From an uncultured Gammaproteobacteria bacterium (GTDB lineage Bacteria; Patescibacteriota; Patescibacteriia; Magasanikbacterales; UBA922): a stretch of 64,000 nt of DNA. The position numbers and the translations under genes are program-made. The stretch spans positions 674,709 through 738,708 of the forward strand of contig OZ246405.1 in NCBI GenBank assembly GCA_965231005.1, read 5' to 3'. Positions 25,401-57,337 of this stretch are shown piece after piece. The notes under the pieces were generated by a model that was given only the letters and a program-made list of their open reading frames with translations, was not told the DNA's origin and did no database searches. The stretch's first letter is position 1. Every line of letters starts with the position of its first letter.

Positions 25401-26183
25401 ATGAAATACACATATAAATACATTGTAGAAAACAGATACGATCCAAATGCACACAAGGCAAGAAAGATCGGTGACAAGTATGTCCTTATGACTGCAATAT
25501 CAAAAGCACTTTCACCAGTTCCAGTGTATATCTTCCTTAATCTAGGTATTCATCCAGACACGATTACACTGATTAGCCTTCTTTTTATTCTTATTGGATC
25601 TGGAGCATTTGTTGTTGGCCTACCTCTTTTAGGAATTCTATTTTATCTTCTTTTTGCTTTGTTTGATTCAGTAGATGGAGATATGGCTCGATGCGCTGGT
25701 CCAACATCTTATGGGAGTGTTCTAGATTCATTTGGTGCCGACTTGTTTTATGCCTGTTCTCCCATTGCAGTAAGTTTTTATTTGTTTTCAAAAGAAATAG
25801 CAATCCTAAATATGGAATCTTCTTTTCTTTTACTTGTTGGGGCATTCATTTCAGCAACATTTATGGTTTATAGACTTATTAATGCAAAGGTATATAAGTT
25901 TATGAGTAATGCAAGTAATGGATCGTCAGACTATACGCAAGGAGCAAAAAAGAAGATACGCAGCGGAGTCTTAAAAAGCATTGTAAAAGTGTATAGGCAT
26001 GTGTTAGTAAGAGGTAATTTTTTTGCAGAACCAGGAATGCTATTTTGGTTTTCAATTCTTACCATATTTAAGGCCCATGAAGTGCTGGCTTGGTATTTAC
26101 TTGGAATTCTCATATACAATATCGGGTATTTATCTATGAATTTTTTTGGAACATATATATTTTTTAAAACACTAAGAAAATGA
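25401..26183 (+). CDS. CDP-alcohol phosphatidyltransferase-family membrane phosphotransferase
   Basis: 'DSVDGDMARCAGPTSYGSVLDSFGADLF' approximates DGxxAR...G...D...D. Multiple TM segments. Confidence 0.5.
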   Translation: MKYTYKYIVENRYDPNAHKARKIGDKYVLMTAISKALSPVPVYIFLNLGIHPDTITLISLLFILIGSGAFVVGLPLLGILFYLLFALFDSVDGDMARCAGPTSYGSVLDSFGADLFYACSPIAVSFYLFSKEIAILNMESSFLLLVGAFISATFMVYRLINAKVYKFMSNASNGSSDYTQGAKKKIRSGVLKSIVKVYRHVLVRGNFFAEPGMLFWFSILTIFKAHEVLAWYLLGILIYNIGYLSMNFFGTYIFFKTLRK

Positions 26184-27553
26184 AGACAATATTTGTAACA
26201 ATGAGCAAAGGTGGGTTGATAAGAAATTTTCTTCATACTGGGGTAATTGAAAAGATACTTCAAGAAGGATGTCGTGTTGTATTACTTACACCACAATATC
26301 AAGATAAAGAAATTTTTAAGCCCTTTATGCATGAAAATCTTGTGCTAGAGCCCTTACATAGATCAAAAATTCGTTTTGGAACGCTTATAGGGGAATTTTC
26401 AAAAGGTGCTGTCTTTAATAGAACAGTGAATTATCTATGGAGATTTCGTTTGCTTGGTGTTGCTCCAAGTAGACTATATTATCTTCCACGTATATTATTT
26501 TTGTCATGGTTAAGATGGATTCCTGGGTTCAAGACATGCATCCGTTGGATTGATATGATAATTAATCCACAAAAAGAACATGACTATCTATTTGAAAAAT
26601 ATAAACCCGATCTTATTTTTTCTACATCATGTAATGGATATGTTGATAGCGGTGTTATTAAAGGCGCAAAACGATTTGGTGTTAAAACAGTCGGGATGTT
26701 GCAAAGTTGGGATAATGTTTCGAAAATATTAACCAATACAAAGATGGATTATCTTTTTGTATGGAGTCCATTTATGAAACATCAAGCAATGACGCTTCAA
26801 GGATTCAAAGAATCAGAAATTGTTGTGACTGGTGTTCCGCAGTTTGATCATTACCACAAAAAAGAGAAGCTTTTAAGTAGAGAAGATTTCTGCAAAAAAT
26901 TTAATTTTGATCCACAGAAAAAAATTGTACTTTATGGATCAAGTGGTGGTGGGCCAGATCTTGAGCAAGAGTCAGATTATCCTGAAATCATCCATGGGTT
27001 TTTAGAACAAGGTCTTTTGCGTGATGTTCAAGTCATAGCAAGACCACATATCGGATACAAAAATGATGCAGACAAGTTTGACTGTTTGGCAACATATGAT
27101 GGTTTTGCAGTAGATAGGACAGACACACAAAGTCCAAAGTTTACTGATCATTGGGATCCAAGTGTGGAACATTTAAACCACTTGTACAATTCCCTTTATC
27201 ATGCAGATGTGTGTATCAATATTGCTTCAACACTCACACTTGATGCGGCTGTTTGTGGTACTCCTGTTATTAACATACGCTTTGATCGCAATGAGGTTGA
27301 TAATTATAATGATTCTTTGCGTAGACTTCATGATACAGGCTATATTCGTGCAGTTATGGCTATTGGAGCAACATGGATTGTAAATAGTAAAGATGAGTTT
27401 CTTGTTGCACTTAAGGCGGTTCTTGAAAAAAACATGCAAAAGGATTTGAATAGACTTATTAATGAATTTATATATAAAAATGATGGAAGATCTGCCGAGC
27501 GTATTGCAGATGCATTAGTAAAGATTGTCTCTAATGAGAAAATAACATCCTAA
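26180..27553 (+). CDS. GT-B-fold transferase, TagB/TagF (CDP-glycerol glycerophosphotransferase)-like or KpsC/KpsS-like; paralogue 1 of 4
   Basis: 'KKIVLYGSSGG', 'RPHIGY', C-terminal 'YHADVCINIASTLTLDAAVCGTPVI' shared with 33288..34709. ATGA overlap with the upstream gene. Confidence 0.4.
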   Translation: MKTIFVTMSKGGLIRNFLHTGVIEKILQEGCRVVLLTPQYQDKEIFKPFMHENLVLEPLHRSKIRFGTLIGEFSKGAVFNRTVNYLWRFRLLGVAPSRLYYLPRILFLSWLRWIPGFKTCIRWIDMIINPQKEHDYLFEKYKPDLIFSTSCNGYVDSGVIKGAKRFGVKTVGMLQSWDNVSKILTNTKMDYLFVWSPFMKHQAMTLQGFKESEIVVTGVPQFDHYHKKEKLLSREDFCKKFNFDPQKKIVLYGSSGGGPDLEQESDYPEIIHGFLEQGLLRDVQVIARPHIGYKNDADKFDCLATYDGFAVDRTDTQSPKFTDHWDPSVEHLNHLYNSLYHADVCINIASTLTLDAAVCGTPVINIRFDRNEVDNYNDSLRRLHDTGYIRAVMAIGATWIVNSKDEFLVALKAVLEKNMQKDLNRLINEFIYKNDGRSAERIADALVKIVSNEKITS

Positions 27554-27555
27554 GT

Positions 27556-29319
27556 ATGTGTGGAATCATTGGTGTTGCAGGAAACATTCCTGAGAAAAAA
27601 ATAATAGAGGAAGCGCGTGACTCCATACGTCATCGCGGTCCTGATGATGCTGGAATATATTATGCTCCAGAAGAAGGTGTTTCATTTGGACATCGTCGTC
27701 TTTCAATTATTGATTTGACTTCTGCTGGACATCAGCCATTTCATAGTAATAATGATCAATATATAGTTACATTTAATGGGGAGATATATAATTATTTAGA
27801 GTTGAAACAAGAATTAAAAGACGTCTATGAATTCAAGACTAATACAGACACAGAAGTTCTTTTAGCCGCATACCAACATTGGGGAGAAGCATGTTTAAAT
27901 AAATTTAACGGAATGTTTTCATTTGCCATCTGGGACAGAGAAAAAAAGAAATTATTTTGTGCACGAGATCGAGTAGGAATCAAACCATTTTATTATACTT
28001 ACAACAATGATACAATAGCCTTTGCATCAGAAATAAAAGCTCTCATTGCAATGGGCGTTGAGAAAAAAATCAATGAGGGAATTTTGTTTGACTATTTGCG
28101 ATATGGTTTATATGACCATACAGATGAAACTTTTTTTGAAGGTGTGCGCGTATTACCACCTGGACATTATCTAATTTTTAGTGGTGGTAAATTAGAAATA
28201 AAAAAATATTGGGATTTAGCAGATGTTAAAATTCAAAAAGATATATCAGAGGAAGAGGTCGAAAAGACATTCCGTGAACTTCTTCAAAATGCTATTGAAC
28301 TGCGTTTTCGTAGCGATGTAAAGGTAGGATTAAATTTGTCTAGTGGGCTTGATTCAAACAGTCTTTATCACTATGCACTTGCAGTGACAAATGAGGATCT
28401 TCATACATTTTCTATGTGTCTGCAGAGTGAGGAATATAATGAGTGCTCTCTTATTGACGAAACACTTTCAGAAGACAAAAAGAAGTTTTGGCACACATGT
28501 TTTCTTAGTCGCGATAGTGTATTGGCTGGTGCAGAGGATATGAATGAGATACAGGATCAGCCGTTTGGCGGAATTCCTACTATTTCATATAAATTTTTGA
28601 TCGAATTAGCACGTGATAATGGTGTAACTGTTCTACTAGAGGGACAAGGAGTGGATGAAATTCTTGCTGGTTATCCATATTATGCAATGGAACATAAAAA
28701 AGATCTCTTGAATGATACAAAAAGTGGTGGGAGTGTTGGTTTAGGACAAGATGGCACTCGTCTTATTAATGAAGAAATATTGTCAGAAGATTTTGTAAAT
28801 CGTAATGCAGGACGCACATTATCATTTTTTAAACCATTTACATCTCATCTTTTGAATGCACAGTACAGAGATATTCGGTATACAAAATTGCCACGTGTCT
28901 TGCGTTTTAATGATCATGTCACAATGCATCTTGGTAGGGAACTGCGTGTACCATTTTTAGATCATAGACTTATAGAATTTTGTTTTTCTCTTTCTGAGAA
29001 ATACAAAATCCATAATGGAACACATAAGGTTTTGCTTCGCAATATTATGGACAGTGTAATTCCAAAAAAAATTCAGAAAAAAAAGAAAAAAGTATTTGGT
29101 GCGATTCAGACAGAGTGGTTTAAAGGTTCAATGAAAGAAAAAATATATGCATTATTAGATTCATCATCTTTTAAAAGAAGAGATTATTGGAATCATGATC
29201 AATTAAAGAAAGAAGTAGACAAGTTTTTTGCTGGTGAACGTAATAATTCATTTTTTATCTGGCAATGCTTAAATTTGGAAATGTGGTTACAAAAATATAT
29301 CGACAAAGCAGAAATATGA
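27556..29319 (+). CDS. asparagine synthase-like glutamine amidotransferase (AsnB family), second copy
   Basis: 'MCGIIGVAGN', 'HRGPDDAGIYY', 'HRRLSIIDL', 'GLNLSSGLDS'. Confidence 0.8.
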   Translation: MCGIIGVAGNIPEKKIIEEARDSIRHRGPDDAGIYYAPEEGVSFGHRRLSIIDLTSAGHQPFHSNNDQYIVTFNGEIYNYLELKQELKDVYEFKTNTDTEVLLAAYQHWGEACLNKFNGMFSFAIWDREKKKLFCARDRVGIKPFYYTYNNDTIAFASEIKALIAMGVEKKINEGILFDYLRYGLYDHTDETFFEGVRVLPPGHYLIFSGGKLEIKKYWDLADVKIQKDISEEEVEKTFRELLQNAIELRFRSDVKVGLNLSSGLDSNSLYHYALAVTNEDLHTFSMCLQSEEYNECSLIDETLSEDKKKFWHTCFLSRDSVLAGAEDMNEIQDQPFGGIPTISYKFLIELARDNGVTVLLEGQGVDEILAGYPYYAMEHKKDLLNDTKSGGSVGLGQDGTRLINEEILSEDFVNRNAGRTLSFFKPFTSHLLNAQYRDIRYTKLPRVLRFNDHVTMHLGRELRVPFLDHRLIEFCFSLSEKYKIHNGTHKVLLRNIMDSVIPKKIQKKKKKVFGAIQTEWFKGSMKEKIYALLDSSSFKRRDYWNHDQLKKEVDKFFAGERNNSFFIWQCLNLEMWLQKYIDKAEI

Positions 29320-30443
29320 TTCAAATAGATCACAATACAATTTGGGAAAAAATGACGACTGGAGTTTTTGTTATTGCCGAGGCAGGGAAAGCATTTATTC
29401 AGACAAAAGAACGTCAGCCAGTCAAAGTTTATCTTGAGAATGCAAAGCAGCTTGTTGATAAAGCAGTTTGGGCAGGTGCTGATGCAATAAAATGGCAGAC
29501 TCATTTTGCAGAAGATGAACAGTTGCAAAGGGAAATTGAATCTCCACATTTTGTCGGTGCAGACAGGTATCAGTGGATTTTAAGAAATGAGCAGGATACT
29601 CCATACGAAACATTTTGGAAACCATTGAAAGAATATTCTGATTCCAAAAATATTGTGTTTATGACAACTCCTATGAGCAGAGGTGCAGCATTACGCGTCA
29701 AAGATTTGAAACCAAGTCTTTGGAAGATTGGCTCTGGTGATATTTTAGATTTTGTTTGTATGGATTTTTTACGTGACACAGGTGTACCTATTATTATGTC
29801 ATCTGGAATGAGTTCGCTTGAAGAGGTCAAGGCTGGAATTGAGTTTCTCTTGGAAAAAAATGATCGTGTTATGCTCATGCATGCACTTAGTAAATATCCA
29901 GGAGAGGCAGAAGAAGCAAACCTTGCGACAATACAATTATATAGAGAAATATTTCCAGAGGTTCCAATAGGATTTTCTGAAAATTCTGTAGGAATTGATC
30001 CAACATGTATAGCAGTTGCACTTGGTGTTACAGCTGTTGAAAAGCATTTTACCATTAGTCGAGATGTTTGGGGGGCAGATCACAAAGTGTCTTCCACACC
30101 AGAAGAGTTTAAAGAAATGGTTGAGACGATTAAAAAGATTACATCAGATCCATCTGAAAGAGAAAAGTGGTTAACACATCCCAAATTTGAAGATATCGTG
30201 GGTGTCAAGGAAAAAATAGTGCAAGAAGATGAAAAAGTATTTCGTCCGTTGTTTAGGAAATCACTTATGGCAGGCGATGATATCCCTGTTGGGACAGTTA
30301 TAACTGAAGAAATGATTTATGCTATGCGCCCACAACAGTTTGCAGGAGGTTTACCATCTGAAGCATATCCAAATATTCTTGGAAAAAGAGTCATTAAGAA
30401 ATTAAAAAAATTTGATCCAATTACCAATGATGTAATTGAATAA
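29316..30443 (+). CDS. NeuB-family nonulosonic acid synthase (PEP-condensing) with C-terminal SAF domain
   Basis: 'VFVIAEAGKAF...AGADAIKWQTH'. C-terminal SAF-like 'GDDIPVGTVITEEMIYAMRP'. ATGA overlap with asnB-like. Confidence 0.8.
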   Translation: MIQIDHNTIWEKMTTGVFVIAEAGKAFIQTKERQPVKVYLENAKQLVDKAVWAGADAIKWQTHFAEDEQLQREIESPHFVGADRYQWILRNEQDTPYETFWKPLKEYSDSKNIVFMTTPMSRGAALRVKDLKPSLWKIGSGDILDFVCMDFLRDTGVPIIMSSGMSSLEEVKAGIEFLLEKNDRVMLMHALSKYPGEAEEANLATIQLYREIFPEVPIGFSENSVGIDPTCIAVALGVTAVEKHFTISRDVWGADHKVSSTPEEFKEMVETIKKITSDPSEREKWLTHPKFEDIVGVKEKIVQEDEKVFRPLFRKSLMAGDDIPVGTVITEEMIYAMRPQQFAGGLPSEAYPNILGKRVIKKLKKFDPITNDVIE

Positions 30444-30453
30444 AAAGAGCATT

Positions 30454-31617
30454 ATGAATACTGAACGAAAAAGAAAAATTTGTTTTGTCATCACCTCCAA
30501 GATTCATTATGGAAGAAGTAAATTAATCCTAGAGGAATTGAGAAGAAGAGAAGATATTGAGTTACAGATTGTTGTCGGTGCATCAGCAATTCTTCCAAAC
30601 TATGGAGATGTCTTAAGTCTTTTGGAGCAGGATGGTTTTTCATGTGATGCAAAGATAACGATGACGGTTGAGGGTGGTACTTCTGTTTCAATGGCAAAAA
30701 CTGCAGGCCTAGGTATTGTTGAATTTGCAACTGCATTTGATAATTTACAGCCAGATATTGTGGTTCTTCGTGCTGATAGATATGAAGTACTTGCTGCTGC
30801 AATTGCTGCTGCATATCTCAATATAACAGTTGCACATATCGAGGGTGGAGATATATCAGGGACAATTGATGAAAGTGTGAGACATGCTATTACAAAGATT
30901 TCCCATATACATTTTCCTACAAATGAAGCGGCATTAAATCGCATTATCAAGATGGGGGAGAACCCGGCATATGTACATAATTTTGGTTGTCCAGGTGTGG
31001 AATTTGCAGTAGAAAATATGAATAATATTTCTAGTGACATAATTAATGCCATGGGAGTTGGTGATATTGTTGATATAGAAAAGCCATTCTTAGTTGTTAT
31101 GCAGCATCCTGTGACCACAGAAATACAAAATAATAGGAAAAATACAAGAGAAACCCTTAAAGCAATTCAGTATGTAGATATCCCTACAATTTGGTTTTGG
31201 CCAAACGTAGATGCAGGGACAGATGAGGTAAGTAAAGCGATTCGTGTGTTTAGAGAAATTGAAAATCCAAAAAATATTAGATTTCTTAAATACATCCGTG
31301 CTGAGGATTTCAATGCACTCATTGACAAATCTGTATGTCTTATCGGAAATTCGTCTGCTGGAATTAAAGAAGCTTCATATCTCGGAACTCCAGTAGTAAA
31401 TGTCGGTACAAGACAAAATGGGCGAATGCGTGGACACAATGTACTGGATGTTAACTATGATCAAGATGAAATAAAAAAAGCCATTGACATCCAAATTAAA
31501 CATGGTAAATTTTCATCAAGCGACATGTATTACAAGCCAGGTACGAGTAAAAACATTGTTGATATGCTAGCATCAGCACAGTTATATACGCAAAAGTTTT
31601 TCTTTGAAAAAGAATAA
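30454..31617 (+). CDS. UDP-N-acetylglucosamine 2-epimerase (hydrolysing), NeuC/LegG type
   Basis: 'HIEGGDISGTIDESVRHAITKISHIHFPT'. Track start at 30436 is TTG; first ATG is at 30454. Confidence 0.8.
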   Translation: MNTERKRKICFVITSKIHYGRSKLILEELRRREDIELQIVVGASAILPNYGDVLSLLEQDGFSCDAKITMTVEGGTSVSMAKTAGLGIVEFATAFDNLQPDIVVLRADRYEVLAAAIAAAYLNITVAHIEGGDISGTIDESVRHAITKISHIHFPTNEAALNRIIKMGENPAYVHNFGCPGVEFAVENMNNISSDIINAMGVGDIVDIEKPFLVVMQHPVTTEIQNNRKNTRETLKAIQYVDIPTIWFWPNVDAGTDEVSKAIRVFREIENPKNIRFLKYIRAEDFNALIDKSVCLIGNSSAGIKEASYLGTPVVNVGTRQNGRMRGHNVLDVNYDQDEIKKAIDIQIKHGKFSSSDMYYKPGTSKNIVDMLASAQLYTQKFFFEKE

Positions 31618-31627
31618 GTATTATTTT

Positions 31628-32332
31628 ATGTATAAAAATAAAAAAATTCTAGGTATTATAACTGCTCGTGGTGGTTCAAAAGGTATCCCAAAAAAGAATA
31701 TCAAGTTGTTGGCAGGGAAACCTCTTGTTGCATACACAATTAAAGCAGCAGCAAAGAGTGAGTATTTGACACGAACAATTGTTTCAACTGACAATCAGGA
31801 AATTGCTGATATTGCGGCCGAATATGACGCCGATGTACCATTTATGCGTCCTGCGGAATACGCAACAGATAACGCAACTTCACTTGATGTGGTAAAGCAT
31901 GCAGTATCTACACTAGAAAAAAAAGGCGAAAATTATGATTATGTTATGATTCTGCAACCAACATCTCCACTGCGTACACCACGTGATATAGATTCATGTA
32001 TTGAAAAAATTGTTGATACAAATGCAGACTCAGTAATGAGTATGATGGAGCTGCAGGATTTTTCCATAAAAAAATTGAAAAAAATCAAAGATGATCAAAT
32101 ATTTCCTTTTTTAGAAGAAGAAGGCGCTCAATCTAGTATGCGACAAGATTTGCCAAAAGTATTCAAAAGAAATTGTGCAATTTATTTGTCAAAAGTATCC
32201 AATGTTAAAAATAATGATTTATTTGGAAATGTCTCTCGACCATATATGATGCCTTATGAAAGATCTATTGACATAAACGAACAAATCGATTTTGATTTGG
32301 CTGAATTTTTTATTATCAAGAATGGTTTATGA
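31628..32332 (+). CDS. acylneuraminate cytidylyltransferase family (CMP-ulosonic acid synthetase, NeuA-like)
   Basis: 'ILGIITARGGSKGIPKKNIKLLAGKPLVAYTI'. ATG at 31628; the track start is TTG. Confidence 0.8.
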   Translation: MYKNKKILGIITARGGSKGIPKKNIKLLAGKPLVAYTIKAAAKSEYLTRTIVSTDNQEIADIAAEYDADVPFMRPAEYATDNATSLDVVKHAVSTLEKKGENYDYVMILQPTSPLRTPRDIDSCIEKIVDTNADSVMSMMELQDFSIKKLKKIKDDQIFPFLEEEGAQSSMRQDLPKVFKRNCAIYLSKVSNVKNNDLFGNVSRPYMMPYERSIDINEQIDFDLAEFFIIKNGL

Positions 32333-34709: not shown

Positions 34710-34718
34710 CCTAAATAA

Positions 34719-36493: not shown

Positions 36494-36498
36494 ATTGT

Positions 36499-37650: not shown

Positions 37651-37651
37651 T

Positions 37652-38509: not shown

Positions 38510-38519
38510 AATAAGTAAT

Positions 38520-39560: not shown

Positions 39561-39566
39561 GCTCTT

Positions 39567-41357: not shown

Positions 41358-41395
41358 AACATTATTTTTATGATTATAAATGGTAGCATATTAAG

Positions 41396-41424
41396 TTGAC
41401 GAACAGGCAATCATGCGGTACAAT
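41396..41424 (+). promoter_or_regulatory. sigma70-like promoter TTGACG-N17-TACAAT
   Basis: TTGACG at 41396-41401, 17-nt spacer, TACAAT at 41419-41424. Lies in a 113-bp gap before 41471. Confidence 0.4.
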
Positions 41425-41470
41425 ATTTTGGTATTTATCGCTTAATAGAGCTATTTTAACTCAATGAAAC

Positions 41471-42997: not shown

Positions 42998-43001
42998 CTA
43001 T

Positions 43002-43730: not shown

Positions 43731-43768
43731 CAGATCTGTTATTATAAGTGGTTAATACAGTTAATATT

Positions 43769-44449: not shown

Positions 44450-44451
44450 CT

Positions 44452-45285: not shown

Positions 45286-45290
45286 TTACT

Positions 45291-46115: not shown

Positions 46116-46116
46116 T

Positions 46117-46890
46117 ATGGAATTAGGTTTGCAAGACAAAGTAGCATTAATAAGTGGTTCTTCACGAGGTATTGGATATGCTGTTGCTACATCAATGTTA
46201 GAACATGGTGCACGGGTTATTATTAATGGGAGAAATAAAGAACAGCTTGATACAGCATATGACGCATTAGTGGCAGCACATGGAAGTGACAATGTTTTTT
46301 CTTTTCTTGGTGACCTTACAAAAGAAGATGATATCAACCGCTGTGTGCAGTTCATTCAGCAGCAGTGTTCAGGACTTGATATCCTTGTTTCCAATATTGG
46401 TTCTGGAAAATCACAGCCTGGTGCTGAAGTAGCATTGGAAGAATGGAAACGGATGTTTGATGTTAATTTTTTTGGTAGTGTTTCTCTTATTCAGGCAATG
46501 ATTTCTATGATGAAAGAAAAGGCGCAAGGATCGATTGTTTGCATTAGTTCAATTGCAGGTCTTGAAACAATTGGAGCACCACTTCCATATGAGGCAGCAA
46601 AAGCAGCACTCATTTCATATGTTCAAGCACTTGCAAAACAGCTCGCGCCAAATATTAGAGTAAATAGTGTTGCCCCTGGAAATATTTTCTTTGCTGGAGG
46701 AAGATGGGAAGAGTTAGTCAACCAAGATTCGTCTGGTGTTCAAAACATGTTAGACAGCAAGGTTCCTATGAAACGATTTGGAACACCAGAAGAAATTGCA
46801 TCAGTTGTTTCGTTTCTTTCATCTCAGCAAGCATCATTTGTAACAGGTGCTACCTGGGTTGCTGATGGGGGACAAACCATAAGTAGATAA
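46117..46890 (+). CDS. short-chain dehydrogenase/reductase
   Basis: 'VALISGSSRGIGYAVA'; 'YEAAKAAL'. Confidence 0.75.
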   Translation: MELGLQDKVALISGSSRGIGYAVATSMLEHGARVIINGRNKEQLDTAYDALVAAHGSDNVFSFLGDLTKEDDINRCVQFIQQQCSGLDILVSNIGSGKSQPGAEVALEEWKRMFDVNFFGSVSLIQAMISMMKEKAQGSIVCISSIAGLETIGAPLPYEAAKAALISYVQALAKQLAPNIRVNSVAPGNIFFAGGRWEELVNQDSSGVQNMLDSKVPMKRFGTPEEIASVVSFLSSQQASFVTGATWVADGGQTISR

Positions 46891-46900
46891 TATAAATACT

Positions 46901-47734
46901 ATGAAACAAGTTCATGATATGTTCAATCTCTCAGGTAAAGTTGCTGTTATTACAGGAGGTGCAGGACTGTTAGGAGTGAAACATGCAGAAGCAATTGCAG
47001 AATATGGTGGAATACCAGTGCTCTTTGACATCAATGAAACACAAGCAAAAGAACGAGCAAAAGAAATTGCTGAGAAATATCAAGTCCAAGCAATTGGTAT
47101 TGGTGGTGACATCACAGATAAACAAGATATTGAACGAGTACGTGATGAATTATTAAAAGAGTTTTCTCACATTGATATTCTCATCAATAATGCAGCAAAT
47201 GATCCAAAAGTAAAAGAAGAAGAAAACCAAATGCCTTGGTCACGATTTGAACAGTTTTCACGAGATGTATGGGATGGTGATATTGCCGTTGGATTGACTG
47301 GAGCATTTCTCTGTGCACAGATCTTTGGAAATGAAATGGCAAAACAGAAAAAGGGTGTGATTCTAAATATTGCCTCTGATTTAGGTGTGATAGCGCCAGA
47401 CCAACGAATTTACAGAAAAGAAAATACTGCTGATGATATGCAACCAGTAAAGCCAGTCACATACTCAGTTGTAAAACATGGACTTATTGGTTTAACAAAA
47501 TATTTAGCAACATATTGGGCAGACAATGGAATTCGGGTAAATGCTATTTCACCCGGGGGAGTGTATAATGGACAACCAGATGCATTTGTTGAAAAATTGG
47601 CACAATTGATCCCACTTGGGAGGATGGCAGATAAGGATGAGTATAAAGCAGCCATTATTTTCCTTGTTTCTGATGCATCAAGCTATATGACAGGTGCAAA
47701 TTTGAATATTGATGGAGGGCGCACTTGTTGGTAA
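46901..47734 (+). CDS. short-chain dehydrogenase/reductase
   Basis: 'VAVITGGAGLLGVKHA'; 'YSVVKHGLIGLTKY'. Confidence 0.75.
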   Translation: MKQVHDMFNLSGKVAVITGGAGLLGVKHAEAIAEYGGIPVLFDINETQAKERAKEIAEKYQVQAIGIGGDITDKQDIERVRDELLKEFSHIDILINNAANDPKVKEEENQMPWSRFEQFSRDVWDGDIAVGLTGAFLCAQIFGNEMAKQKKGVILNIASDLGVIAPDQRIYRKENTADDMQPVKPVTYSVVKHGLIGLTKYLATYWADNGIRVNAISPGGVYNGQPDAFVEKLAQLIPLGRMADKDEYKAAIIFLVSDASSYMTGANLNIDGGRTCW

Positions 47735-47766
47735 TATTAATTATATTTGAACCTTTTTGATACTTA

Positions 47767-47795
47767 TTGACACCTTTTGTAGTGGATGATACTAT
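47767..47795 (+). promoter_or_regulatory. sigma70-like promoter TTGACA-N17-TACTAT
   Basis: TTGACA at 47767-47772, 17-nt spacer, TACTAT at 47790-47795. Lies in a 100-bp gap before 47835. Confidence 0.4.
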
Positions 47796-47834
47796 ATTAA
47801 TTAGTAAATAAACTATCACAGAATATTAGATTTT

Positions 47835-48494
47835 ATGAGCAAAATTCACCCAATTCACGAGCATCTTTTAGACCGATACCCACATCTTGATCGATGTAAA
47901 GATGATATTTTAAATGCATTTCACCTTATCCTTGATTGCTTCAACAACGGAGGAAAACTTTTGGTAATGGGAAATGGTGGATCAAGTGCAGATGCAGAAC
48001 ACATTTGTGCTGAATTAACAAAAGGATGTGTGTTGCAAAGACAACTAAAAGAGAGTGAGCGAGATTTATTTGGAGGTGACGTCGGTATTCTTCCTCAAAT
48101 GTTGCAAAATGGTTTACCAGCATTTTCGCTTGGAGTGTCTCATTCACTCATTAGCGCGTTTATGAATGACGTCCACCCTGAATTTATTTTTGCACAACAG
48201 ATTTGGGTGCATGCAAAAGAAAACGATGTTGTATTGGCATTGTCTACCTCAGGAAATTCACGAAACGTTGTTGCAGGAATTCATACTGCAAAAGCAAGAA
48301 ATATTAAATCAATTGTACTTACTGGTGGAAATCAAAATAATAGATCATCACAATTAGCAGATGTTAGCATTTGTGTTCCAGAATATGAGGTGCATAAAAT
48401 TCAAGAGCTACATCTTCCAGTTTATCATTATTTATGTATGGCAATTGAACATGAGTTTTTTCATGAACATAAAGGATCACATTATCAACAATAA
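47835..48494 (+). CDS. SIS-domain sugar-phosphate isomerase (GmhA-like)
   Basis: 'LLVMGNGGSSADAEHICAEL' and 'VVLALSTSGNSRNVV'. Confidence 0.7.
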   Translation: MSKIHPIHEHLLDRYPHLDRCKDDILNAFHLILDCFNNGGKLLVMGNGGSSADAEHICAELTKGCVLQRQLKESERDLFGGDVGILPQMLQNGLPAFSLGVSHSLISAFMNDVHPEFIFAQQIWVHAKENDVVLALSTSGNSRNVVAGIHTAKARNIKSIVLTGGNQNNRSSQLADVSICVPEYEVHKIQELHLPVYHYLCMAIEHEFFHEHKGSHYQQ

Positions 48495-48519
48495 TTTTTT
48501 TATATTTTAATAAAAACAT

Positions 48520-49359
48520 ATGTCAGCATTTATCATCGCGGAAATAGGAATCAATCATAATGGAAGTTTAGATATTGCAAAGCAGCTTATTGATGGAGCA
48601 AAGCTTGCAGGTTGTGATGCAGTAAAGTTTCAAAAACGAACATTGGAAACAGTATATTCAAAAGAAGATTTAGATAGAGAAAGACAATCACCTTGGGGAA
48701 CAACAAATCGCGAGCAAAAACAAGGATTAGAATTTTCAATTGAGGATTACAAAGAAATTGATAAATACTGTAAAGAAAAAAAGATTGAATGGTTTTTTTC
48801 AGCTTGGGATGTACAAAGTCAAAAAGACATGAGAGTGTTTGATCTAAAATACAATAAAGTTGCATCTCCAATGTTAGGACATACTGAACTTCTTAAAGAA
48901 ATTGCTTCAGAAGGAAAACACACATTTATATCAACAGGCATGTCTTCGCTCGAGGAAATAGATAAGGCAGTTGAAATCTTCAAAAATGCAAACTGTCCAT
49001 TTGAACTTATGCATTGCAACAGTACATATCCTATGAAGAATGAAGATGCAAATCTTCGTGTGATGGACGTTTTGAAGGAACGGTATGGTTGCGATGTTGG
49101 GTATAGTGGTCATGAAGGTGGAAGGATTGTTTCTTTCATGGCATGCGTACTTGGTGCAACATCTCTTGAAAGACATATTACATTAAACAAAGCAATGTAT
49201 GGTTCAGATCAAGCAGCATCTATTTTGATTTACGATTTGTGTAAGTTGGTAAATGATGTTCGTGGTATTGATGCTATTATGGGTGACGGAAAAAAAGAGA
49301 TTCTTGAATCTGAAATGCCGGCAAGAAAAAAACTTCGTTATTACGAACAACAATCATAA
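48520..49359 (+). CDS. NeuB-family ulosonic acid (phosphate) synthase, short form without SAF domain
   Basis: 'FIIAEIGINHNGSLDIAKQLIDGAKLAGCDAVKFQKRT'. Only 279 aa (TIM barrel only). Confidence 0.7.
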   Translation: MSAFIIAEIGINHNGSLDIAKQLIDGAKLAGCDAVKFQKRTLETVYSKEDLDRERQSPWGTTNREQKQGLEFSIEDYKEIDKYCKEKKIEWFFSAWDVQSQKDMRVFDLKYNKVASPMLGHTELLKEIASEGKHTFISTGMSSLEEIDKAVEIFKNANCPFELMHCNSTYPMKNEDANLRVMDVLKERYGCDVGYSGHEGGRIVSFMACVLGATSLERHITLNKAMYGSDQAASILIYDLCKLVNDVRGIDAIMGDGKKEILESEMPARKKLRYYEQQS

Positions 49360-49367
49360 GTAGATAT

Positions 49368-49886
49368 ATGTCTCAAAAAGATATTGTAGAAAAATTAAAA
49401 TTGGTTCAGCTACTTGTTTTAGATTTTGATGGTGTTTTTACAGATGGCTGTGTGTATGTAAATCAAGATGGTGTTGAATCAGTAAAATGTAGCCGAAAGG
49501 ATGGTCTTGGTATTAATCTTTTACACAAGCATGGCCTTGAAGCATTCGTTATCTCAAAAGAAATAAATCCAGTTGTTGCAGCACGTTGCAAAAAATTAGG
49601 GATTCCATGTGTTCAGGGAGTCCACGATAGTGATGGTAAACTAGAAATATTAAAACGAATATTAGATGAAAAGGGTCTTTCTTCAGATCAAATTGCGTAT
49701 ATGGGTGACGATATTAATGACTATGCGTGCATTGAATATGCTGGAGTAGGAATCACAACAAAGGATGGACATGAGTCGCTGCGAGAAATTGCATTATATA
49801 CTACAAATGCGTGTGGAGGAGATCATGCAGTGCGCGAAGTTTGTGAGAAAATATTAAAAGCCAAGGGTATCGTATTGGAATTTTAA
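49368..49886 (+). CDS. HAD-family ulosonate-phosphate phosphatase (KdsC/YrbI-like)
   Basis: 'LLVLDFDGVFTDGCVYV', 'YMGDDINDYAC', 'GGDHAVREVCEKIL' are KdsC-type blocks. Confidence 0.75.
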   Translation: MSQKDIVEKLKLVQLLVLDFDGVFTDGCVYVNQDGVESVKCSRKDGLGINLLHKHGLEAFVISKEINPVVAARCKKLGIPCVQGVHDSDGKLEILKRILDEKGLSSDQIAYMGDDINDYACIEYAGVGITTKDGHESLREIALYTTNACGGDHAVREVCEKILKAKGIVLEF

Positions 49887-49958
49887 TTTTCGTTCTGCGG
49901 TGTAAATAATGCTGCTCATTTTCTTAGATGGAGGATAGGAGGACTGATTGTAATCTTT

Positions 49959-51203
49959 ATGAAGAAGCAAAAGATTTTCTTTATTCCAACATATATAGGT
50001 CCGATTAAACACTACGAGCGTTTGATTCCTTATCTTCAAGATACATATGATGTTGAATTTTTGATTGTACGTCCAGAGAGTTCTCAACGGAAGGAATCCG
50101 TGGAATATTGCAAAGAAAAAAAATACACATACCATATTATTGACAAAGGAATTACAAGAGATATTGGTATTCGAATCCCCTTTTTCACACCGATTAAAAA
50201 GAGATACGAACATGCTATAGCTTGTCGTAATTTTTTAAAAACACATGAGGCCGCAAAAATTATTTCCCACAAGTCATCATCTCCATATGACTCTCTTTTT
50301 AGAGAGGCAAATAGACTTGGAATAGAAACGATTGTGCTTCAATGGTCATCGGCTGCGAGTATAATAGAACAAGACAAGCGTGTAAATTCTTTCGTTCAGA
50401 AGACGTACTTGTTCTTTTTAAAGGTAATTTTTGCTTTACTGGATCTTTTTTACAAAGAATCTCGTTTTGGATATAAAACAGCCATTCCTAAAAAAATTGG
50501 GGTTTTCGACAAAATAAAAAAAGAGTATTATATCGGAGAAGGGTTTGATCCCAAAATCATAGATATTGTTGGGTCTATTGATTTTCAATTATTGTATGAA
50601 TTAAGAAAAAGAATAGACACAGATTCACGTTTGAGAGAGTCATTGCTCGAAAAATATGGACTTTCTAAAAATAAGATTAATATTGTCGTCATTCTGTATC
50701 GTTTTTATATGGCGCCAGACAAAAAATACAAGATGACAATTGATGAGCATGTCTCACATTATTATGATTTGTTTAAGAGTATCCGAGAAGTTTTTTCGGA
50801 GGAGGAAGCAAACGTTTTGCTGAAGATGCATCCAACAGAAAATAGAATGCCCGAGCTGTATCATTCGTATAAAGAGCTTGGTGTACAATTATTTTATGGT
50901 GATGCAAAAACAGATGAGCTTGTATGTTTGTCTGATCTCTATATTTCTGAGCCTGCATCAAGTGTAAACTATATGGTACTCGGAAGTAATACACCATCAA
51001 TTTTTGTTAATCTTTCCGAATTTGAATTTCTCAATAATCGAGCACAATATTTTAACATTACCCATATAGCAACTAGTCGAGAAGGATTTATCAGAAAATT
51101 AAAAGAGTTTAAGAATGGAACACTTGAAAGACAATACAACACAGACGATATTGAACTAAGATCCATTGATAAGACAGTATCTTTTATCAAAAAGAATATA
51201 TGA
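49959..51203 (+). CDS. GT-B-fold TagF/KpsC-like transferase; paralogue 4 of 4 (putative)
   Basis: 'NIVVILYRFYMAPDKK' resembles the TagF 'ILYAPT' block. Similar size and context. Confidence 0.3.
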   Translation: MKKQKIFFIPTYIGPIKHYERLIPYLQDTYDVEFLIVRPESSQRKESVEYCKEKKYTYHIIDKGITRDIGIRIPFFTPIKKRYEHAIACRNFLKTHEAAKIISHKSSSPYDSLFREANRLGIETIVLQWSSAASIIEQDKRVNSFVQKTYLFFLKVIFALLDLFYKESRFGYKTAIPKKIGVFDKIKKEYYIGEGFDPKIIDIVGSIDFQLLYELRKRIDTDSRLRESLLEKYGLSKNKINIVVILYRFYMAPDKKYKMTIDEHVSHYYDLFKSIREVFSEEEANVLLKMHPTENRMPELYHSYKELGVQLFYGDAKTDELVCLSDLYISEPASSVNYMVLGSNTPSIFVNLSEFEFLNNRAQYFNITHIATSREGFIRKLKEFKNGTLERQYNTDDIELRSIDKTVSFIKKNI

Positions 51204-51892
51204 ATATCATGGCAGTTATTCCCGCAAGGAGTGGTTCAAAGGGAGTAAAGGACAAAAATATAAGAAAAATTCTTGGAAAAGAATTGCTTGGATATGCAAT
51301 TGATTTTGCAAAAAAACTCGAGGTTGATTCTATCTTTTGTTCAACTGATTCGCCTGTGTATGCAGATATAGCAAAGAGTCATGGTGCAGATGTACCTTTT
51401 TTGCGTTCAAAAGAAGCTGCAAGAGACACAGCAATGGAACAAGATATTCTTGAAGATTTATATAACAAATTTGATGAACACAGTATTGCGTATCCAGATT
51501 TATTTGTTTGGCTCCGTCCTACATTTTTGTTTAGAGATATTGCTGCAGTAAAGGAGTGTATCAAAAAAATGGTTGATGATCCTTCTTTAACAGCATGCAG
51601 AGTTGTTACAGAGACAGAATCTCGTTTATATACTGGTGATAATGGAATGCTCAAACCAGATTTTAATGATAATGGAGCATCGATGGCAAGACGACAAGAT
51701 GTTCCGACAAAGTATAAGGTGTATAACACAGATGTATTTCGGGGGAATCCAAAAAATTGTGGTCCAAATTTTTTAGGAAATGCTGTCGGATATGTTGTCG
51801 CAGGGAAATTATCTGGGATTGATATTGATGATGAAACTGATTTTTTAATTGCATCTCATTTATTAAAAGGATTAGGTCATGAGTATTTGTAA
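51200..51892 (+). CDS. acylneuraminate cytidylyltransferase family (CMP-ulosonic acid synthetase), copy 4
   Basis: 'MAVIPARSGSKGVKDKNIRKILGKELLGYAI'. ATGA overlap. Confidence 0.75.
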   Translation: MNIMAVIPARSGSKGVKDKNIRKILGKELLGYAIDFAKKLEVDSIFCSTDSPVYADIAKSHGADVPFLRSKEAARDTAMEQDILEDLYNKFDEHSIAYPDLFVWLRPTFLFRDIAAVKECIKKMVDDPSLTACRVVTETESRLYTGDNGMLKPDFNDNGASMARRQDVPTKYKVYNTDVFRGNPKNCGPNFLGNAVGYVVAGKLSGIDIDDETDFLIASHLLKGLGHEYL

Positions 51893-52553
51893 AGATATAC
51901 AACAAAAGATAGAAGCCCAGTTGGAAAATATTTTGTCACTTCGCGCAGATAGAGATCTTAAAGATGACAAAAGTTTTGTAACAAAAGGTGACTTACTGTG
52001 CCAAGATATTATTGTTGAACATATACAGTCTCTTGAAACACCTTTTGAAATAATTTCTGAAGAGATTGATCTTGGGACATTTGCATACGACAAAGAAAAA
52101 AACTATGTTATAGTAGATCCTATTGATGGAACAGAGAATTTCACTTCTGGATTGCGAGAGTGGGGGATTTCAATAGCTATTTATGAAAAAGGAACACATG
52201 TAGAATCAATGCTTGGTTTACCAGAGCTTAATGTATGGCTTCATACTGGTGATACTATTCAAAAGTACGAATCTCGGATTTTAGGACTTTCTTCGTCTCT
52301 TTCAAAAGACGATATGAATAATATCCCAAGGGGGCCAGAGTACAGAATAATTGGCTGTTGCGTTTATAACGTGTATAATGCTATAACCGGTTCTTTTGCC
52401 TCATTTGAGAATGTAAAAGGGGCGAATACATGGGATATTCTTGCAGGGTGTAATCTTGCTCTGGAGCATGGGAGAAAGGTGACTGTAGATGGAAAACCCT
52501 ATGCAGGAGAATTTCTTTCACCAAACAAAAAATATTTATTTAAGATAGGATAA
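51879..52553 (+). CDS. inositol-monophosphatase-family (IMPase/SuhB/CysQ) sugar-phosphate phosphatase
   Basis: 'IISEEID', 'VIVDPIDGTENF', 'TWDILAGCNLALEHG' (WDxAAG). Confidence 0.65.
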   Translation: MSICKDIQQKIEAQLENILSLRADRDLKDDKSFVTKGDLLCQDIIVEHIQSLETPFEIISEEIDLGTFAYDKEKNYVIVDPIDGTENFTSGLREWGISIAIYEKGTHVESMLGLPELNVWLHTGDTIQKYESRILGLSSSLSKDDMNNIPRGPEYRIIGCCVYNVYNAITGSFASFENVKGANTWDILAGCNLALEHGRKVTVDGKPYAGEFLSPNKKYLFKIG

Positions 52554-52561
52554 TAACCAAT

Positions 52562-53413
52562 ATGGAAGATAAAGTTATTATTGTTGCAGAGATAACAACA
52601 AATCATTTGGGGGACATAGAGAGACTCAAAAAAATGGTTCGTCTTTCAAAAGAAGCAGGCGCAGATTTGGTAAAAATACAAAGACGAACTGTTGAAACAT
52701 TTTATCCACCAGGACAGTTGGATAAGCCATATGATTCTCCATTTGGAAGTACGTATAGAGATTTTAGACATGGACTAGAACTTTCTATGGAAGATATGCA
52801 TGCGTTTGACCAAGAATGCAAACGGTTAGATATTGATTGGTTTTCTACGATTTTAGATTTTGAATCTTATGAATTGTTAGAACCATTTCAAAAACGCATA
52901 TTAAAAATTCCATCAACCATTTCTAAACATACAGCATTTCATAAAAAGATTGCTGAAAAACACAAAGGTCCTATTGTTGTTTCTACTGGATTTACTGATC
53001 AAGCATATGAAGATTATGTCATGGAAACATTTAAAGATAATGAAAAGATTTATCTACTTCAGACTACATCAGCATATCCAACTCCACCAGAAGATTGTCT
53101 TATTTCAGTGATAAGACATTATAGTAAGCTTAGTGAAAAGAATCCAAAAATTGTTCCAGGATATTCGGGTCATGATATCGGATCACTTGGATTTATGCTT
53201 GCTGTTGCAGCTGGTGCAAAAATGATTGAAAAGCATGTAAAGCTTGGTGATACTGAATGGATGCATTTCCAAGATGTTGCTGTTGATTTGGAAAATGGAG
53301 ATTTTGCAAAGTTTGTTCAAGACGTGCGTAAAGCTGAAAAAATGTGTGGAAGCGAAAAAAAGGAAATCAAATCTACAGAACATCATAAGTATGATTATAT
53401 TCCAGAAGTTTAA
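52562..53413 (+). CDS. NeuB-family ulosonic acid (phosphate) synthase, short form without SAF domain, copy 4
   Basis: 'IIVAEITTNHLGDIERLKKMVRLSKEAGADLVKIQRRT'. Only 283 aa. Confidence 0.65.
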   Translation: MEDKVIIVAEITTNHLGDIERLKKMVRLSKEAGADLVKIQRRTVETFYPPGQLDKPYDSPFGSTYRDFRHGLELSMEDMHAFDQECKRLDIDWFSTILDFESYELLEPFQKRILKIPSTISKHTAFHKKIAEKHKGPIVVSTGFTDQAYEDYVMETFKDNEKIYLLQTTSAYPTPPEDCLISVIRHYSKLSEKNPKIVPGYSGHDIGSLGFMLAVAAGAKMIEKHVKLGDTEWMHFQDVAVDLENGDFAKFVQDVRKAEKMCGSEKKEIKSTEHHKYDYIPEV

Positions 53414-57336: not shown

Positions 57337-57337
57337 T

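Follow-up and report, generated by a model that had tools for sequence, protein, structure and literature searches.

Candidate routes to four CMP-activated ulosonic acids in a surface-glycan locus of a Candidatus Magasanikbacteria bacterium

Gene content and the free-sugar modules

The window analyzed here is a stretch of 64,000 nucleotides from contig OZ246405.1 (1.23 Mb), obtained from a metagenome (PRJEB17505), and its region from 26180 to 53413 holds a run of genes for the biosynthesis and activation of ulosonic acids. All of the genes in this region lie on the + strand, with gaps of no more than ~115 nt between them in the open reading frame (ORF) listing. They encode four NeuB-family synthases (NeuB1 to NeuB4), four CTP_transf_3 cytidylyltransferases (NeuA1 to NeuA4), and two NeuC-type hydrolysing 2-epimerases (NeuC1 and NeuC2). 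Domains were called using Pfam (gathering scores) and NCBIfam (equivalog and subfamily cut-offs). The NeuB domain (PF03102) is detected in NeuB1, NeuB2, NeuB3, and NeuB4 with 189.9, 237.1, 222.5, and 157.1 bits, respectively, against a Pfam gathering score of 22.1. The two Epimerase_2 proteins NeuC1 and NeuC2 score 369.5 and 386.6 bits with the NeuC_NnaA model, for which the cut-off is 235.9. By Pfam, NeuB1 and NeuB2 carry an SAF domain and NeuB3 and NeuB4 consist of the barrel only. These counts agree with an initial annotation of the DNA, which had also listed a PseB-like dehydratase, an extended short-chain dehydrogenase/reductase (SDR), and three SDRs with a TIM barrel. All of the latter were recovered by Pfam (the TIM barrel as AP_endonuc_2), along with a SIS protein, a HAD protein, and an IMPase-like protein. 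Several start coordinates differ from those of the initial annotation through the choice of start codon.

The NeuB sequences were aligned to PDB 1XUZ, and residues are numbered as in the NeuB of Neisseria meningitidis. The residues Lys53, Lys129, Ser132, Ser154, and Ser213, which bind phosphoenolpyruvate (PEP), are present in all four proteins. The NeuBs are 25-35% identical to one another, and the NeuAs 27-35%. Because these values are so low, the paralogues appear to be old, and the concern that they might be recent duplicates of identical specificity is not borne out.

Module 1 extends from 26180 to 34709. Its first gene encodes Tag1 (26180-27553), a protein of the glycosyltransferase B (GT-B) fold that is a candidate cytidine monophosphate (CMP)-nonulosonate transferase of the TagB/BFO_1060 type, and its last gene encodes Tag2 (33288-34709), a second TagB/BFO_1060-like GT-B protein and candidate nonulosonate transferase. 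The Glyphos_transf (PF04464) scores for Tag1 and Tag2 are 41.9 and 38.6 bits, respectively, against 22.1. Between them are the genes for an AsnB-like glutamine amidotransferase (27556-29319; Asn_synthase and GATase_7, with 433.8 bits for asn_synth_AEB against a cut-off of 267.1), SAF-bearing NeuB1 (29265/29316-30443), NeuC1 as a hydrolysing 2-epimerase for uridine diphosphate (UDP)-N-acetylhexosamine (HexNAc) (30436-31617), the CMP-ulosonate synthetase NeuA1 (31604-32332, with a probable start at 31628), in which the PARxGSK, QxTSPxR, RxQD, and DxD motifs are conserved, and an accessory D-2-hydroxyacid dehydrogenase of the glycerate/hydroxypyruvate type (32329-33291; 2-Hacid_dh_C). The best NCBIfam matches of the dehydrogenase are PGDH and glyoxylate reductase, all under cut-off. 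The AsnB-like protein is a candidate amidating or acetamidino-forming enzyme with a putative role in sugar modification, and together with the dehydrogenase it suggests an amidated or glyceroyl-type substituent. Two AsnB-like genes had been assigned to the region; one is located here, and the second lies upstream at 17698-19668.

NeuB1 has an altered metal site and comes from a rare subfamily: of 1.84 billion cluster representatives, only about 20 exceed 190 bits, and the best of these is 50% identical. The subfamily signature consists of Asn29-Phe30, Met112, Asp134, and a 9-residue insertion after the first strand. The metal is coordinated by His215 and His236 (PMC11339185). In NeuB1, His215 is replaced by Asn, Asn29 by Ala, and His30 by Phe. 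The His215 substitution is common to NeuB1 and its three closest representatives (P0251, P0255, and P0269), and His215 is present in 107 of 110 more distant NeuBs. Every other PEP and sugar contact is retained, as is Arg314, and the ORF is intact and translationally coupled with its neighbours. Module 1 is regarded as probably functional with an altered metal site.

Module 2 begins with the CMP-N-acetylneuraminic acid (Neu5Ac) synthetase-like NeuA2 (34719-35447; CTP_transf_3, motifs conserved), followed by SAF-bearing NeuB2 of the Neu5Ac synthase type (35447-36493) and the hydrolysing UDP-GlcNAc 2-epimerase NeuC2 (36499-37650). NeuB2 is 64% identical to N. meningitidis NeuB over 345 aa (497 bits) and retains His215, His236, Arg314, and Asn74, the last of these in NeuB2 only of the four NeuBs. 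Asn74 touches the C6-hydroxyl of ManNAc, a contact said to be specific for the Neu5Ac synthases (PMC11339185). The NeuB_NnaB equivalog model gives 391.2 bits for NeuB2, 8 bits short of the cut-off of 399.65, and 143-235 bits for the other three NeuBs. From their sequences, NeuA2, NeuB2, and NeuC2 appear to form the canonical three-enzyme set for CMP-Neu5Ac. Since NeuB2 falls under the cut-off and has Asp in place of Glu25, Neu5Ac is described only as the most probable product. All three enzymes are shared with SiaA/SiaC/SiaB of N. meningitidis and NeuC-NeuB-NeuA of Escherichia coli K1; the host here differs, being a CPR bacterium with a genome of ~1.2 Mb, as do the two features of NeuB2 just named and the TagB/BFO_1060-like neighbours. 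No GT38 polysialyltransferase was seen and no GT42, GT52, or GT80 sialyltransferase was recognised at the locus.

Two further genes follow module 2 (34719 to 37650). An extended SDR of 285 aa (37652-38509; Epimerase, RmlD_sub_bind) reaches no NCBIfam equivalog and is probably a 4-keto reductase or epimerase. The next protein (38436/38520-39560) is a PseB/FnlA-like UDP-HexNAc 4,6-dehydratase (Polysacc_synt_2, 349.6 bits) that scores 320.9 bits with the PseB model (cut-off 407.75) and 272 bits with the FnlA model (cut-off 730). By family membership, the pair could yield a UDP-6-deoxy-HexNAc.

A search for aminotransferases and acetyltransferases covered every + strand ORF that lies between 53 and 62588 (all but the last ~1.4 kb of the window) and is 150 aa or longer. 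It also took in the two minus-strand genes of a high-GC island described below, a minus-strand Bac_transf gene, and the called genes 10 kb either side. No DegT or other pyridoxal phosphate (PLP) aminotransferase was found in the scanned 62.6 kb or in either flank, as had been stated for the window before, and no hexapeptide or GNAT N-acetyltransferase was found in the same ORFs and flanks. The PseI model gives at most 230 bits (cut-off 340.25), and the PseF model at most 171 bits (cut-off 205.7). The synthesis of legionaminic (Leg) or pseudaminic (Pse) acid is not supported by the visible gene content because a C4 aminotransferase and an N-acetyltransferase are missing from it, PseB is below cut-off, and PseI is not reached. 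The names PtmA, PseB, PseI, PseF, KdsB, GmhA, and Kdn-9-P phosphatase imply no family membership in this text, since all of these models score below cut-off.

SAF-less synthases and their cassettes

Module 3 (43748 to 51203) begins with the cytidylyltransferase NeuA3 (43748/43769-44449; CTP_transf_3, 93 bits), whose motifs are conserved and whose closest PDB matches are CMP-Neu5Ac synthetases. An SDR (44452-45285), a UlaE-like TIM barrel of the sugar-phosphate 3-epimerase type (45291-46115; AP_endonuc_2, with 71.9 bits for the L-ribulose-5-phosphate 3-epimerase subfamily, sub-cut-off), and two more SDRs (46117-46890 and 46901-47734) come next, each SDR matching adh_short_C2. A Ptm-like label had been attached to these SDRs; the PtmA model, which has a cut-off of 350, gives them 113.6 and 118.2 bits and does not sustain it. 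Tailoring of the module 3 sugar is the role proposed for the SDRs and the TIM barrel from their families and position. The following protein (47835-48494) is a GmhA-like SIS isomerase for ketose and aldose phosphates, with phosphoheptose isomerases as its best matches in PDB (94 bits) and NCBIfam (125.8 bits, cut-off 209). It retains the GNGGSxxDAxH, STSGNS, and IQExH motifs and carries a 28-aa insertion. NeuB3 (48520-49359) is a SAF-less protein of 279 aa that is proposed to join PEP to an aldose phosphate. It is followed by a KdsC-family HAD protein (49368-49886; TIGR01670, 110.3 bits against a cut-off of 106.95) with DxDGxxTD and GDDxND motifs, which is the predicted ulosonate-phosphate phosphatase. 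The last gene encodes w49959 (49959-51203), a GT-B-fold protein restricted to the candidate phyla radiation (CPR) and resembling either a NeuC-like epimerase/hydrolase or a CMP/CDP-dependent transferase. A search of PDB sequences with its family profile gave nothing significant, and its hhalign matches to Tag1, Tag2, and the KpsC/KpsS-like protein w41471 are weak (E=0.006-0.024). The idea that w49959 is a fourth transferase was downgraded to a GT-B fold, epimerase or transferase, given these two results.

The NeuB3 family is large, with at least 8000 relatives at E <= 0.001, and is tightly conserved. Identities among the best 120 are 66-79%, and the members with a named source come from Patescibacteria, Lachnospiraceae, Spirochaetes, and Tara ocean samples. 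Lys53, Gln55, Lys129, Ser132, Tyr186, Ser213, His215, Glu234, His236, and Asp247 are invariant in these 120 sequences; Glu25 is present in 119 (Asp in one) and Ser154 in 111. Phe112 is replaced by Trp, and Glu134 by Met or Leu, in all of the 120. The module 3 cassette recurs at a polysaccharide locus of Lachnospiraceae, with HAD and SIS joined in a single protein and an extra aminotransferase gene, and a reduced version occurs on marine contigs. The aminotransferase is an Aminotran_4 protein in the Lachnospiraceae cassette (L004 9003-9974) and an Aminotran_3 protein in a marine one (L006 11546-12811), with none in the CPR version; these additions suggest amino-substituted variants of the same sugar. 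Module 3, w41471, and w49959 are syntenic in another Magasanikbacterium with 54-74% identity, the middle SDR (46117-46890) excepted.

Module 4 (51200 to 53413) is composed of NeuA4, a divergent cytidylyltransferase (51200/51209-51892; CTP_transf_3, 63.7 bits), an IMPase-family phosphatase (51879-52553; Inositol_P, 66.6 bits) in which the DPIDGT and WDxxAG motifs are present, and NeuB4 (52562-53413; 283 aa), a member of a second SAF-less family that is likewise a proposed PEP and aldose-phosphate synthase. For NeuB4, 16 genomic homologues of 39-68% identity were found in at least six phyla, with hosts that include Paceibacterota, Verrucomicrobiae, several Bacteroidota, Thiothrix, Hydrogenophilus, Actinomycetota, Pelagibacteraceae, and an anammox bacterium. 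Glu25, Lys53, Gln55, Lys129, Ser132, Ser154, Tyr186, Ser213, His215, Glu234, and His236 are retained in all 16; Glu134 is replaced by Ile or Val and Phe112 by Leu in every homologue, and Asp247 varies. An IMPase-family protein, 43-56% identical to the copy in the window, adjoins the synthase in 13 of the 16 loci, and a NeuA4-type cytidylyltransferase is present in at least seven. The two NeuB4 loci viewed closely are polysaccharide loci, in Arsenicibacter (with Bac_transf and a Wzx-like gene) and in Paceibacterota (with GT4 genes and a methyltransferase). In many Bacteroidota loci, the IMPase-like gene and the NeuB domain are ~680 nt apart. The intervening stretch in Arsenicibacter rosenii (L013 9260-10855) reads as an N-terminal NeuB4 extension of ~240 aa with no Pfam match, and the CPR copies are without it.

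NeuB3 and NeuB4 both keep the metal-binding histidines His215 and His236, lack SAF and Arg314, and end ~20 residues past the barrel. Position 134 is hydrophobic in a family-specific manner (Met in NeuB3 and Ile in NeuB4 of the window). Because the metal- and PEP-binding residues are kept across both families, in 120 relatives of NeuB3 and 16 of NeuB4, the short proteins appear to be intact enzymes, contrary to the earlier suspicion that they might be pseudo-enzymes. The synthase with a doubtful active site is instead SAF-bearing NeuB1. The best solved match of NeuB3 is the SAF-less Leptospira protein 6NCS (290 aa; 132 bits), which like NeuB3 and NeuB4 is a TIM barrel only, but the two are just 27-34% identical to it and position 134 is Asp in 6NCS. 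The "environmental" NeuBs without SAF are barrel-only as well; 30% of the UniProt nonulosonic-acid synthases lack SAF, and the survey gives no function for them (PMC8208679). No biochemical characterisation of the NeuB3 or NeuB4 family was found in the literature, and a literature search for NeuB together with KdsC returned no papers.

The modules with short NeuBs are best read as sugar-phosphate pathways with the logic of 3-deoxy-D-manno-octulosonic acid (Kdo) and 2-keto-3-deoxynononic acid (Kdn) biosynthesis, each with its own phosphatase. The comparison systems are the Kdo pathway (KdsD-KdsA-KdsC-KdsB) and the Kdn pathway of Bacteroides thetaiotaomicron (Kdn-9-P synthase, Kdn-9-P phosphatase, and CMP-Kdn synthetase). 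Module 3 has the same order of chemistry, with a SIS isomerase, a PEP-dependent synthase, a KdsC-family HAD protein, and a CMP transferase, and module 4 shares the last three functions. The synthases differ in being NeuB-fold rather than KdsA, the isomerase is GmhA-like rather than KdsD, the module 4 phosphatase is IMPase-like rather than HAD, and module 3 adds three SDRs and the UlaE-like epimerase. None of the locus proteins reaches the equivalog cut-offs of KdsB, KdsC, or Kdn-9-P phosphatase. The acceptance of an aldose phosphate by NeuB3 and NeuB4 is suggested by the adjacent isomerase and phosphatases and by the missing SAF and Arg314. In the Neisseria enzyme, the N-acetyl group is bound by SAF and Arg314 (PMC11339185), and their loss would fit a non-acetamido, phosphorylated substrate. 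Candidates for module 3 are a hexose 6-phosphate, giving a Kdn-like C9 acid, a heptose 7-phosphate, giving a C10 acid, or another sugar. From their distribution, the NeuB3 and NeuB4 cassettes appear to be mobile units found in polysaccharide loci and shared with other phyla.

The position of module 4 is itself variable. In the syntenic slot of a related Magasanikbacterium, module 4 is absent and a CTP_transf_3-SDR fusion, an HpcH aldolase, and a dehydroquinate (DHQ)-synthase-like gene are found instead. Because this relative holds a different ulosonic-acid cassette in the same slot, the slot appears to be a hot spot for the exchange of such cassettes. HpcH/HpaI aldolase genes replace the short NeuB next to CTP_transf_3 genes in two loci (L028 11265-14441 and L029 11265-14625), and in related CPR loci a CMP-activated 2-keto-3-deoxy acid may be made along an alternative route that uses the aldolase. 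A Parcubacteria locus (L030, 18673-20843) has an HpcH/HpaI pyruvate aldolase in place of NeuB beside a 63% identical NeuA4 homologue, which may indicate two routes, through NeuB or through the aldolase, to a similar 2-keto-3-deoxy acid.

In the window, the variable slot is occupied by a high-GC island (53470-55700) in a genome of 34% GC. Of its two minus-strand genes, one (53520-54458; 48% GC) encodes a multi-pass membrane protein of 312 aa that has no match in Pfam, and the other (54603-55640; 62% GC) a protein of 345 aa with weak TPR matches only. A high-GC organism, possibly the host, seems to have been the recent source of the island. An RNA gene was considered for the stretch at 53.5-55.7 kb and rejected, the Rfam and tRNA scans of the window being empty. 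A terminator-like hairpin on the + strand (53431-53454; 10-bp stem and T-run) lies 18 nt past the NeuB4 stop. It is weak evidence for the close of the + strand gene run, and the regional site counts of a terminator and promoter scan are no higher than in shuffles.

Transfer, export, and the surrounding glycan genes

Genes for transfer and export lie among the modules. Tag1 and Tag2 are 28% identical, and a 48% identical homologue of Tag2 adjoins an ABC exporter in a Parcubacteria locus. The orthologues of BFO_1060 in Tannerella are needed for the addition of Pse and Leg derivatives to the S-layer O-glycan, as proven genetically (PMC5420450). Tag1 and Tag2 share the TagB/Glyphos_transf fold with Tanf_01245, TFUB4_00887, and BFO_1060 of Tannerella forsythia and, like them, lie beside nonulosonate genes; the donor sugars differ, and the proteins here are known from sequence alone.

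A half-size ABC exporter (39567-41357; ABC_tran, weak ABC_membrane) is the candidate flippase or exporter of a lipid-linked glycan. It scores 304 bits with HepA_fam, 270 bits with MsbA, and 224 bits with PglK in NCBIfam, all sub-cut-off. The next protein, w41471 (41471-42997), resembles the beta-Kdo transferases KpsC/KpsS (GT107) and is a candidate transferase for a CMP-ulosonate of the Kdo type. It matches the KpsC structure 6MGB with E=4.4e-5 over 82 residues, and the three w41471 family members all match Capsule_synth (best E=9e-5). A syntenic counterpart of 66% identity is present in the related Magasanikbacterium. A single-sequence AlphaFold model of w41471 (pLDDT 37.7) was discarded. Between w41471 and module 3 lies a possible methyltransferase (43002-43730; Methyltransf_24, E=5e-4, below the gathering score). 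Homologues of Tag2, w41471, w49959, and the ABC exporter are grouped in one Parcubacteria locus, and these four proteins look like a conserved assembly core. The combination of TagB/BFO_1060-like and KpsC-like transferases with a PglK/MsbA-like exporter points, from family resemblance, to a surface glycopolymer. A flagellin glycosylation island was considered and rejected, since neither the window nor its flanks contain Maf or flagellar genes.

Wall polymers containing Kdn (teichulosonic acids) exist in monoderm bacteria (PMC11481543, PMC13011467). The Kdn teichulosonic acid of the actinobacterium Streptomyces (cluster SCO4873-SCO4882), an anionic 3-deoxy-ulosonic wall polymer in a cell with no outer membrane, is the type of end product proposed here (PMC11481543, PMC13011467). 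The likeness concerns this proposed product, known here from genes, and the locus differs in encoding four different acids.

Glycan-related content fills the whole window plus 10 kb upstream, so that the glycan locus spans at least 70 kb, or ~6% of the contig, of which the ulosonic-acid part is 27 kb. It includes GT4 and GT2 glycosyltransferases, a carbamoyltransferase, methyltransferases, an FkbH/ACP/MBOAT/GDSL acylation set, glycerate-related enzymes, a CDP-alcohol phosphatidyltransferase, UDP-sugar dehydrogenases, and a Bac_transf priming enzyme. The acylation set (5103-13632) consists of a phosphopantetheinyl transferase, an FkbH-like loader (5474-7279), a 78-aa carrier protein (7282-7518), a MaoC dehydratase (7524-7925), an SDR, an MBOAT protein (8686-10146), a 359-aa protein, and two GDSL/SGNH proteins. 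By analogy it resembles a Dlt/Alg carrier-protein and MBOAT system that would O-acylate a surface polymer with a glycerate-derived acyl group. An 82-aa HTH_17 (excisionase/MerR-like) DNA-binding protein (13798-14046) stands by itself in a mid-locus gap of 450 nt. It could act as a local regulator or be left over from a mobile element. The genes from 14081 to 26183 encode a 2-hydroxyacid dehydrogenase, a nucleotidyltransferase, Ldh_2, two TylF O-methyltransferases, the second AsnB-like protein, and an SDR, and end with DUF4147/MOFRL glycerate-kinase-like, KduI-like, GH57-like, and CDP-alcohol phosphatidyltransferase genes. Counterparts of these last four, 41-61% identical, are found in the Parcubacteria locus L030 near the homologues of w49959, Tag2, the ABC exporter, and w41471.

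The origin of the DNA was examined with a DnaB gene that the same contig carries 10 kb downstream. The named proteins nearest to it are 72-79% identical and almost all from Candidatus Magasanikbacteria, and because of this the host is placed, on DnaB sequence, in that group of the Patescibacteria (CPR). An independent assembly from a second sample matches 42890-49553 and 55319-64000 at 100% identity, by which a chimera is ruled out for module 3 and for the right junction of the high-GC island.

Proposed pathways and competing explanations

We consider it moderately likely that the region makes up the part of a surface-glycan locus devoted to ulosonic acids, with four routes to CMP-activated 3-deoxy-2-ulosonic acids that follow two logics. 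On the free-sugar route of modules 1 and 2, the NeuC-type enzyme would hydrolyse and 2-epimerise a UDP-HexNAc, the SAF-bearing NeuB would join the free manno-sugar to PEP, and NeuA would then add CMP. Module 2 would most probably lead to CMP-Neu5Ac. Module 1 would lead to a modified 5-acylamino nonulosonate only if the Asn215 metal site still works, and its substrate is possibly a 6-deoxy-HexNAc provided by the neighbouring PseB-like dehydratase and reductase. On the second route, the SAF-less NeuB of modules 3 and 4 would join PEP to an aldose phosphate, a phosphatase would strip the terminal phosphate, and the cytidylyltransferase would activate the product. In module 3, the GmhA-like isomerase together with the UlaE-like 3-epimerase and the SDRs would convert a ketose phosphate into the aldose phosphate, and the KdsC-like HAD protein would act as the phosphatase; in module 4 the IMPase-like protein would take this last role. 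The TagB/BFO_1060-like and KpsC-like GT-B enzymes would use the CMP-sugars on a lipid-linked acceptor, and the PglK/MsbA-like ABC transporter would export the latter, giving a teichulosonic-acid-like or capsule-like polymer. The gene content, the family memberships, and the conservation of residues and cassettes were observed; all substrates, products, and the final polymer are predicted from them.

Several points weigh against this interpretation. None of the four NeuBs or four NeuAs reaches any NCBIfam equivalog cut-off, so that their specificities are read from context. NeuB1 lacks a metal-ligand histidine and may be inactive, and aminotransferases elsewhere in the genome may alter the products of modules 1 and 2. 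Glu134, potentially catalytic in Neisseria NeuB (PMC8208679), is replaced in NeuB3 and NeuB4. The phosphatases adjoin the synthases, and their presumed action on ulosonate phosphates follows from this adjacency; the SDRs and TIM barrel of module 3 could act before or after condensation. The BFO_1060 family domain scores 65 bits in Tag1 and 62.7 bits in Tag2, far below the NCBIfam cut-off of 200, and Capsule_synth (PF05159) scores 14.5 bits in w41471 against a gathering score of 20. The protein w49959 may be either an epimerase or a transferase, and the acceptor may be a polymer or a protein.

Fewer than four pathways may work. If module 1 were a decaying or non-catalytic copy, at most three ulosonic acids would be made, and the loss in NeuB1 of a metal-coordinating histidine that is kept nearly throughout the distant NeuBs, together with the changes at positions 29 and 30, gives this alternative a modest probability. 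The intact and coupled ORF speaks against it, as do the recurrence of the same substitution in the three closest relatives, which suggests that it is tolerated, the ability of Asn to ligate Mn2+ or Mg2+, the retention of Arg314 and the other PEP and sugar residues, and the apparently intact NeuC1 and NeuA1. The initial annotation had read the four pairs as a source of several CMP-activated ulosonic acids of the Neu, Leg, Pse, and Kdn-like kinds. The plural stands, with four divergent pairs and different accessory genes; the Leg and Pse part is unsupported, given the missing aminotransferase and N-acetyltransferase. A classical Neu, Leg, Pse, and Kdn-like set for one surface structure, with these two enzymes encoded elsewhere, would accommodate the PseB-like dehydratase (320.9 bits), the two NeuC/LegG-type epimerases, AsnB-like amidotransferases of a kind typical of acetamidino-modified Pse and Leg, and the relation of Tag1 and Tag2 to the Pse/Leg transferases of Tannerella, and the scan covered 62.6 kb of the window and its 10 kb flanks out of 1.23 Mb. 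Aminotransferase and acetyltransferase genes are, however, normally adjacent in known Leg/Pse clusters, and neither was seen in the scanned DNA. The PseB and PseI cut-offs are missed, NeuB2 is of the Neu5Ac type with Asn74, and the short NeuBs lack the N-acetyl binders of the Neisseria enzyme (PMC11339185). The classical set is therefore regarded as unlikely.

The fate of the sugars and the role of the short NeuBs can also be viewed differently. Decoration of pilins, S-layer, or other surface proteins by O-glycosylation, in place of a wall or capsule polymer, is suggested by the nearest functional precedent of the Tag1/Tag2 family, the capping of protein O-glycans in Tannerella, and by the PglK-like flippase, which suits the export of a lipid-linked oligosaccharide. 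CPR cells depend on pili and surface proteins for host attachment. No Maf-type transferase or oligosaccharyltransferase was seen in the window, though, and the KpsC-like, TagF-like, CDP-alcohol phosphatidyltransferase, and MBOAT/GDSL acylation genes are more typical of polymers, which leaves protein decoration rather unlikely. The absence of SAF, Arg314, and Glu134 from NeuB3 and NeuB4, and of biochemical data for their families from the literature, would also allow them to be aldolase-type enzymes of central or secondary metabolism, for synthesis of the 3-deoxy-D-arabino-heptulosonate 7-phosphate (DAHP) or 2-keto-3-deoxy-6-phosphogluconate (KDPG) kind, and not glycan enzymes. This is highly improbable: homologues with checked contexts mostly adjoin CTP_transf_3 across phyla, and the wider contexts examined are polysaccharide loci with glycosyltransferases, flippases, and priming transferases.

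Within the preferred scheme of two logics, a more specific proposal is that at least one SAF-less NeuB cassette makes an undescribed ulosonic acid, with module 3 joining PEP to heptose 7-phosphate to give a ten-carbon 3-deoxy-ulosonic acid along a phosphorylated route of the NeuB type. The idea was raised because the isomerase is GmhA-like, hence of the phosphoheptose type, and it is regarded as rather unlikely. In a 2026 preprint (SugarBase), CMP-activated C10 ulosonic acids were detected by mass spectrometry in Magnetospirillum with no genes assigned. Cassettes like module 3 are obvious but hypothetical candidates for these orphan acids.

Gene clusters for ulosonic acids, sets of NeuC, NeuB, and NeuA, and NeuBs without SAF were already known. 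New here are the four diverged synthase/activator pairs in one operon-like run, the occurrence of such a run in a genome-reduced CPR bacterium, and two cross-phylum cassettes that pair SAF-less NeuBs with phosphatases and predict a NeuB-type sugar-phosphate route. A full-text literature search found no paper with both nonulosonic acids and Patescibacteria, and a broader search gave general CPR papers only. For annotation, the compromised metal site is to be assigned to SAF-bearing NeuB1 and not to the truncated NeuBs.

Solving NeuB3 and NeuB4 would give a function to several thousand database proteins labelled "N-acetylneuraminate synthase family", and their chemistry might account for unassigned CMP-ulosonic acids seen by mass spectrometry. 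If the ten-carbon proposal is true, module 3 would supply the gene set for the orphan C10 acids of Magnetospirillum, and ultra-small CPR bacteria would wear a heteropolymer of up to four ulosonic acids, including a host-like Neu5Ac. CPR bacteria have minimal biosynthetic capacity. Despite its reduced genome, the organism spends ~6% of the 1.23 Mb contig on this glycan locus and 27 kb on four ulosonic-acid routes, and because so much is devoted to it, the cell surface is probably central to a likely episymbiotic lifestyle.

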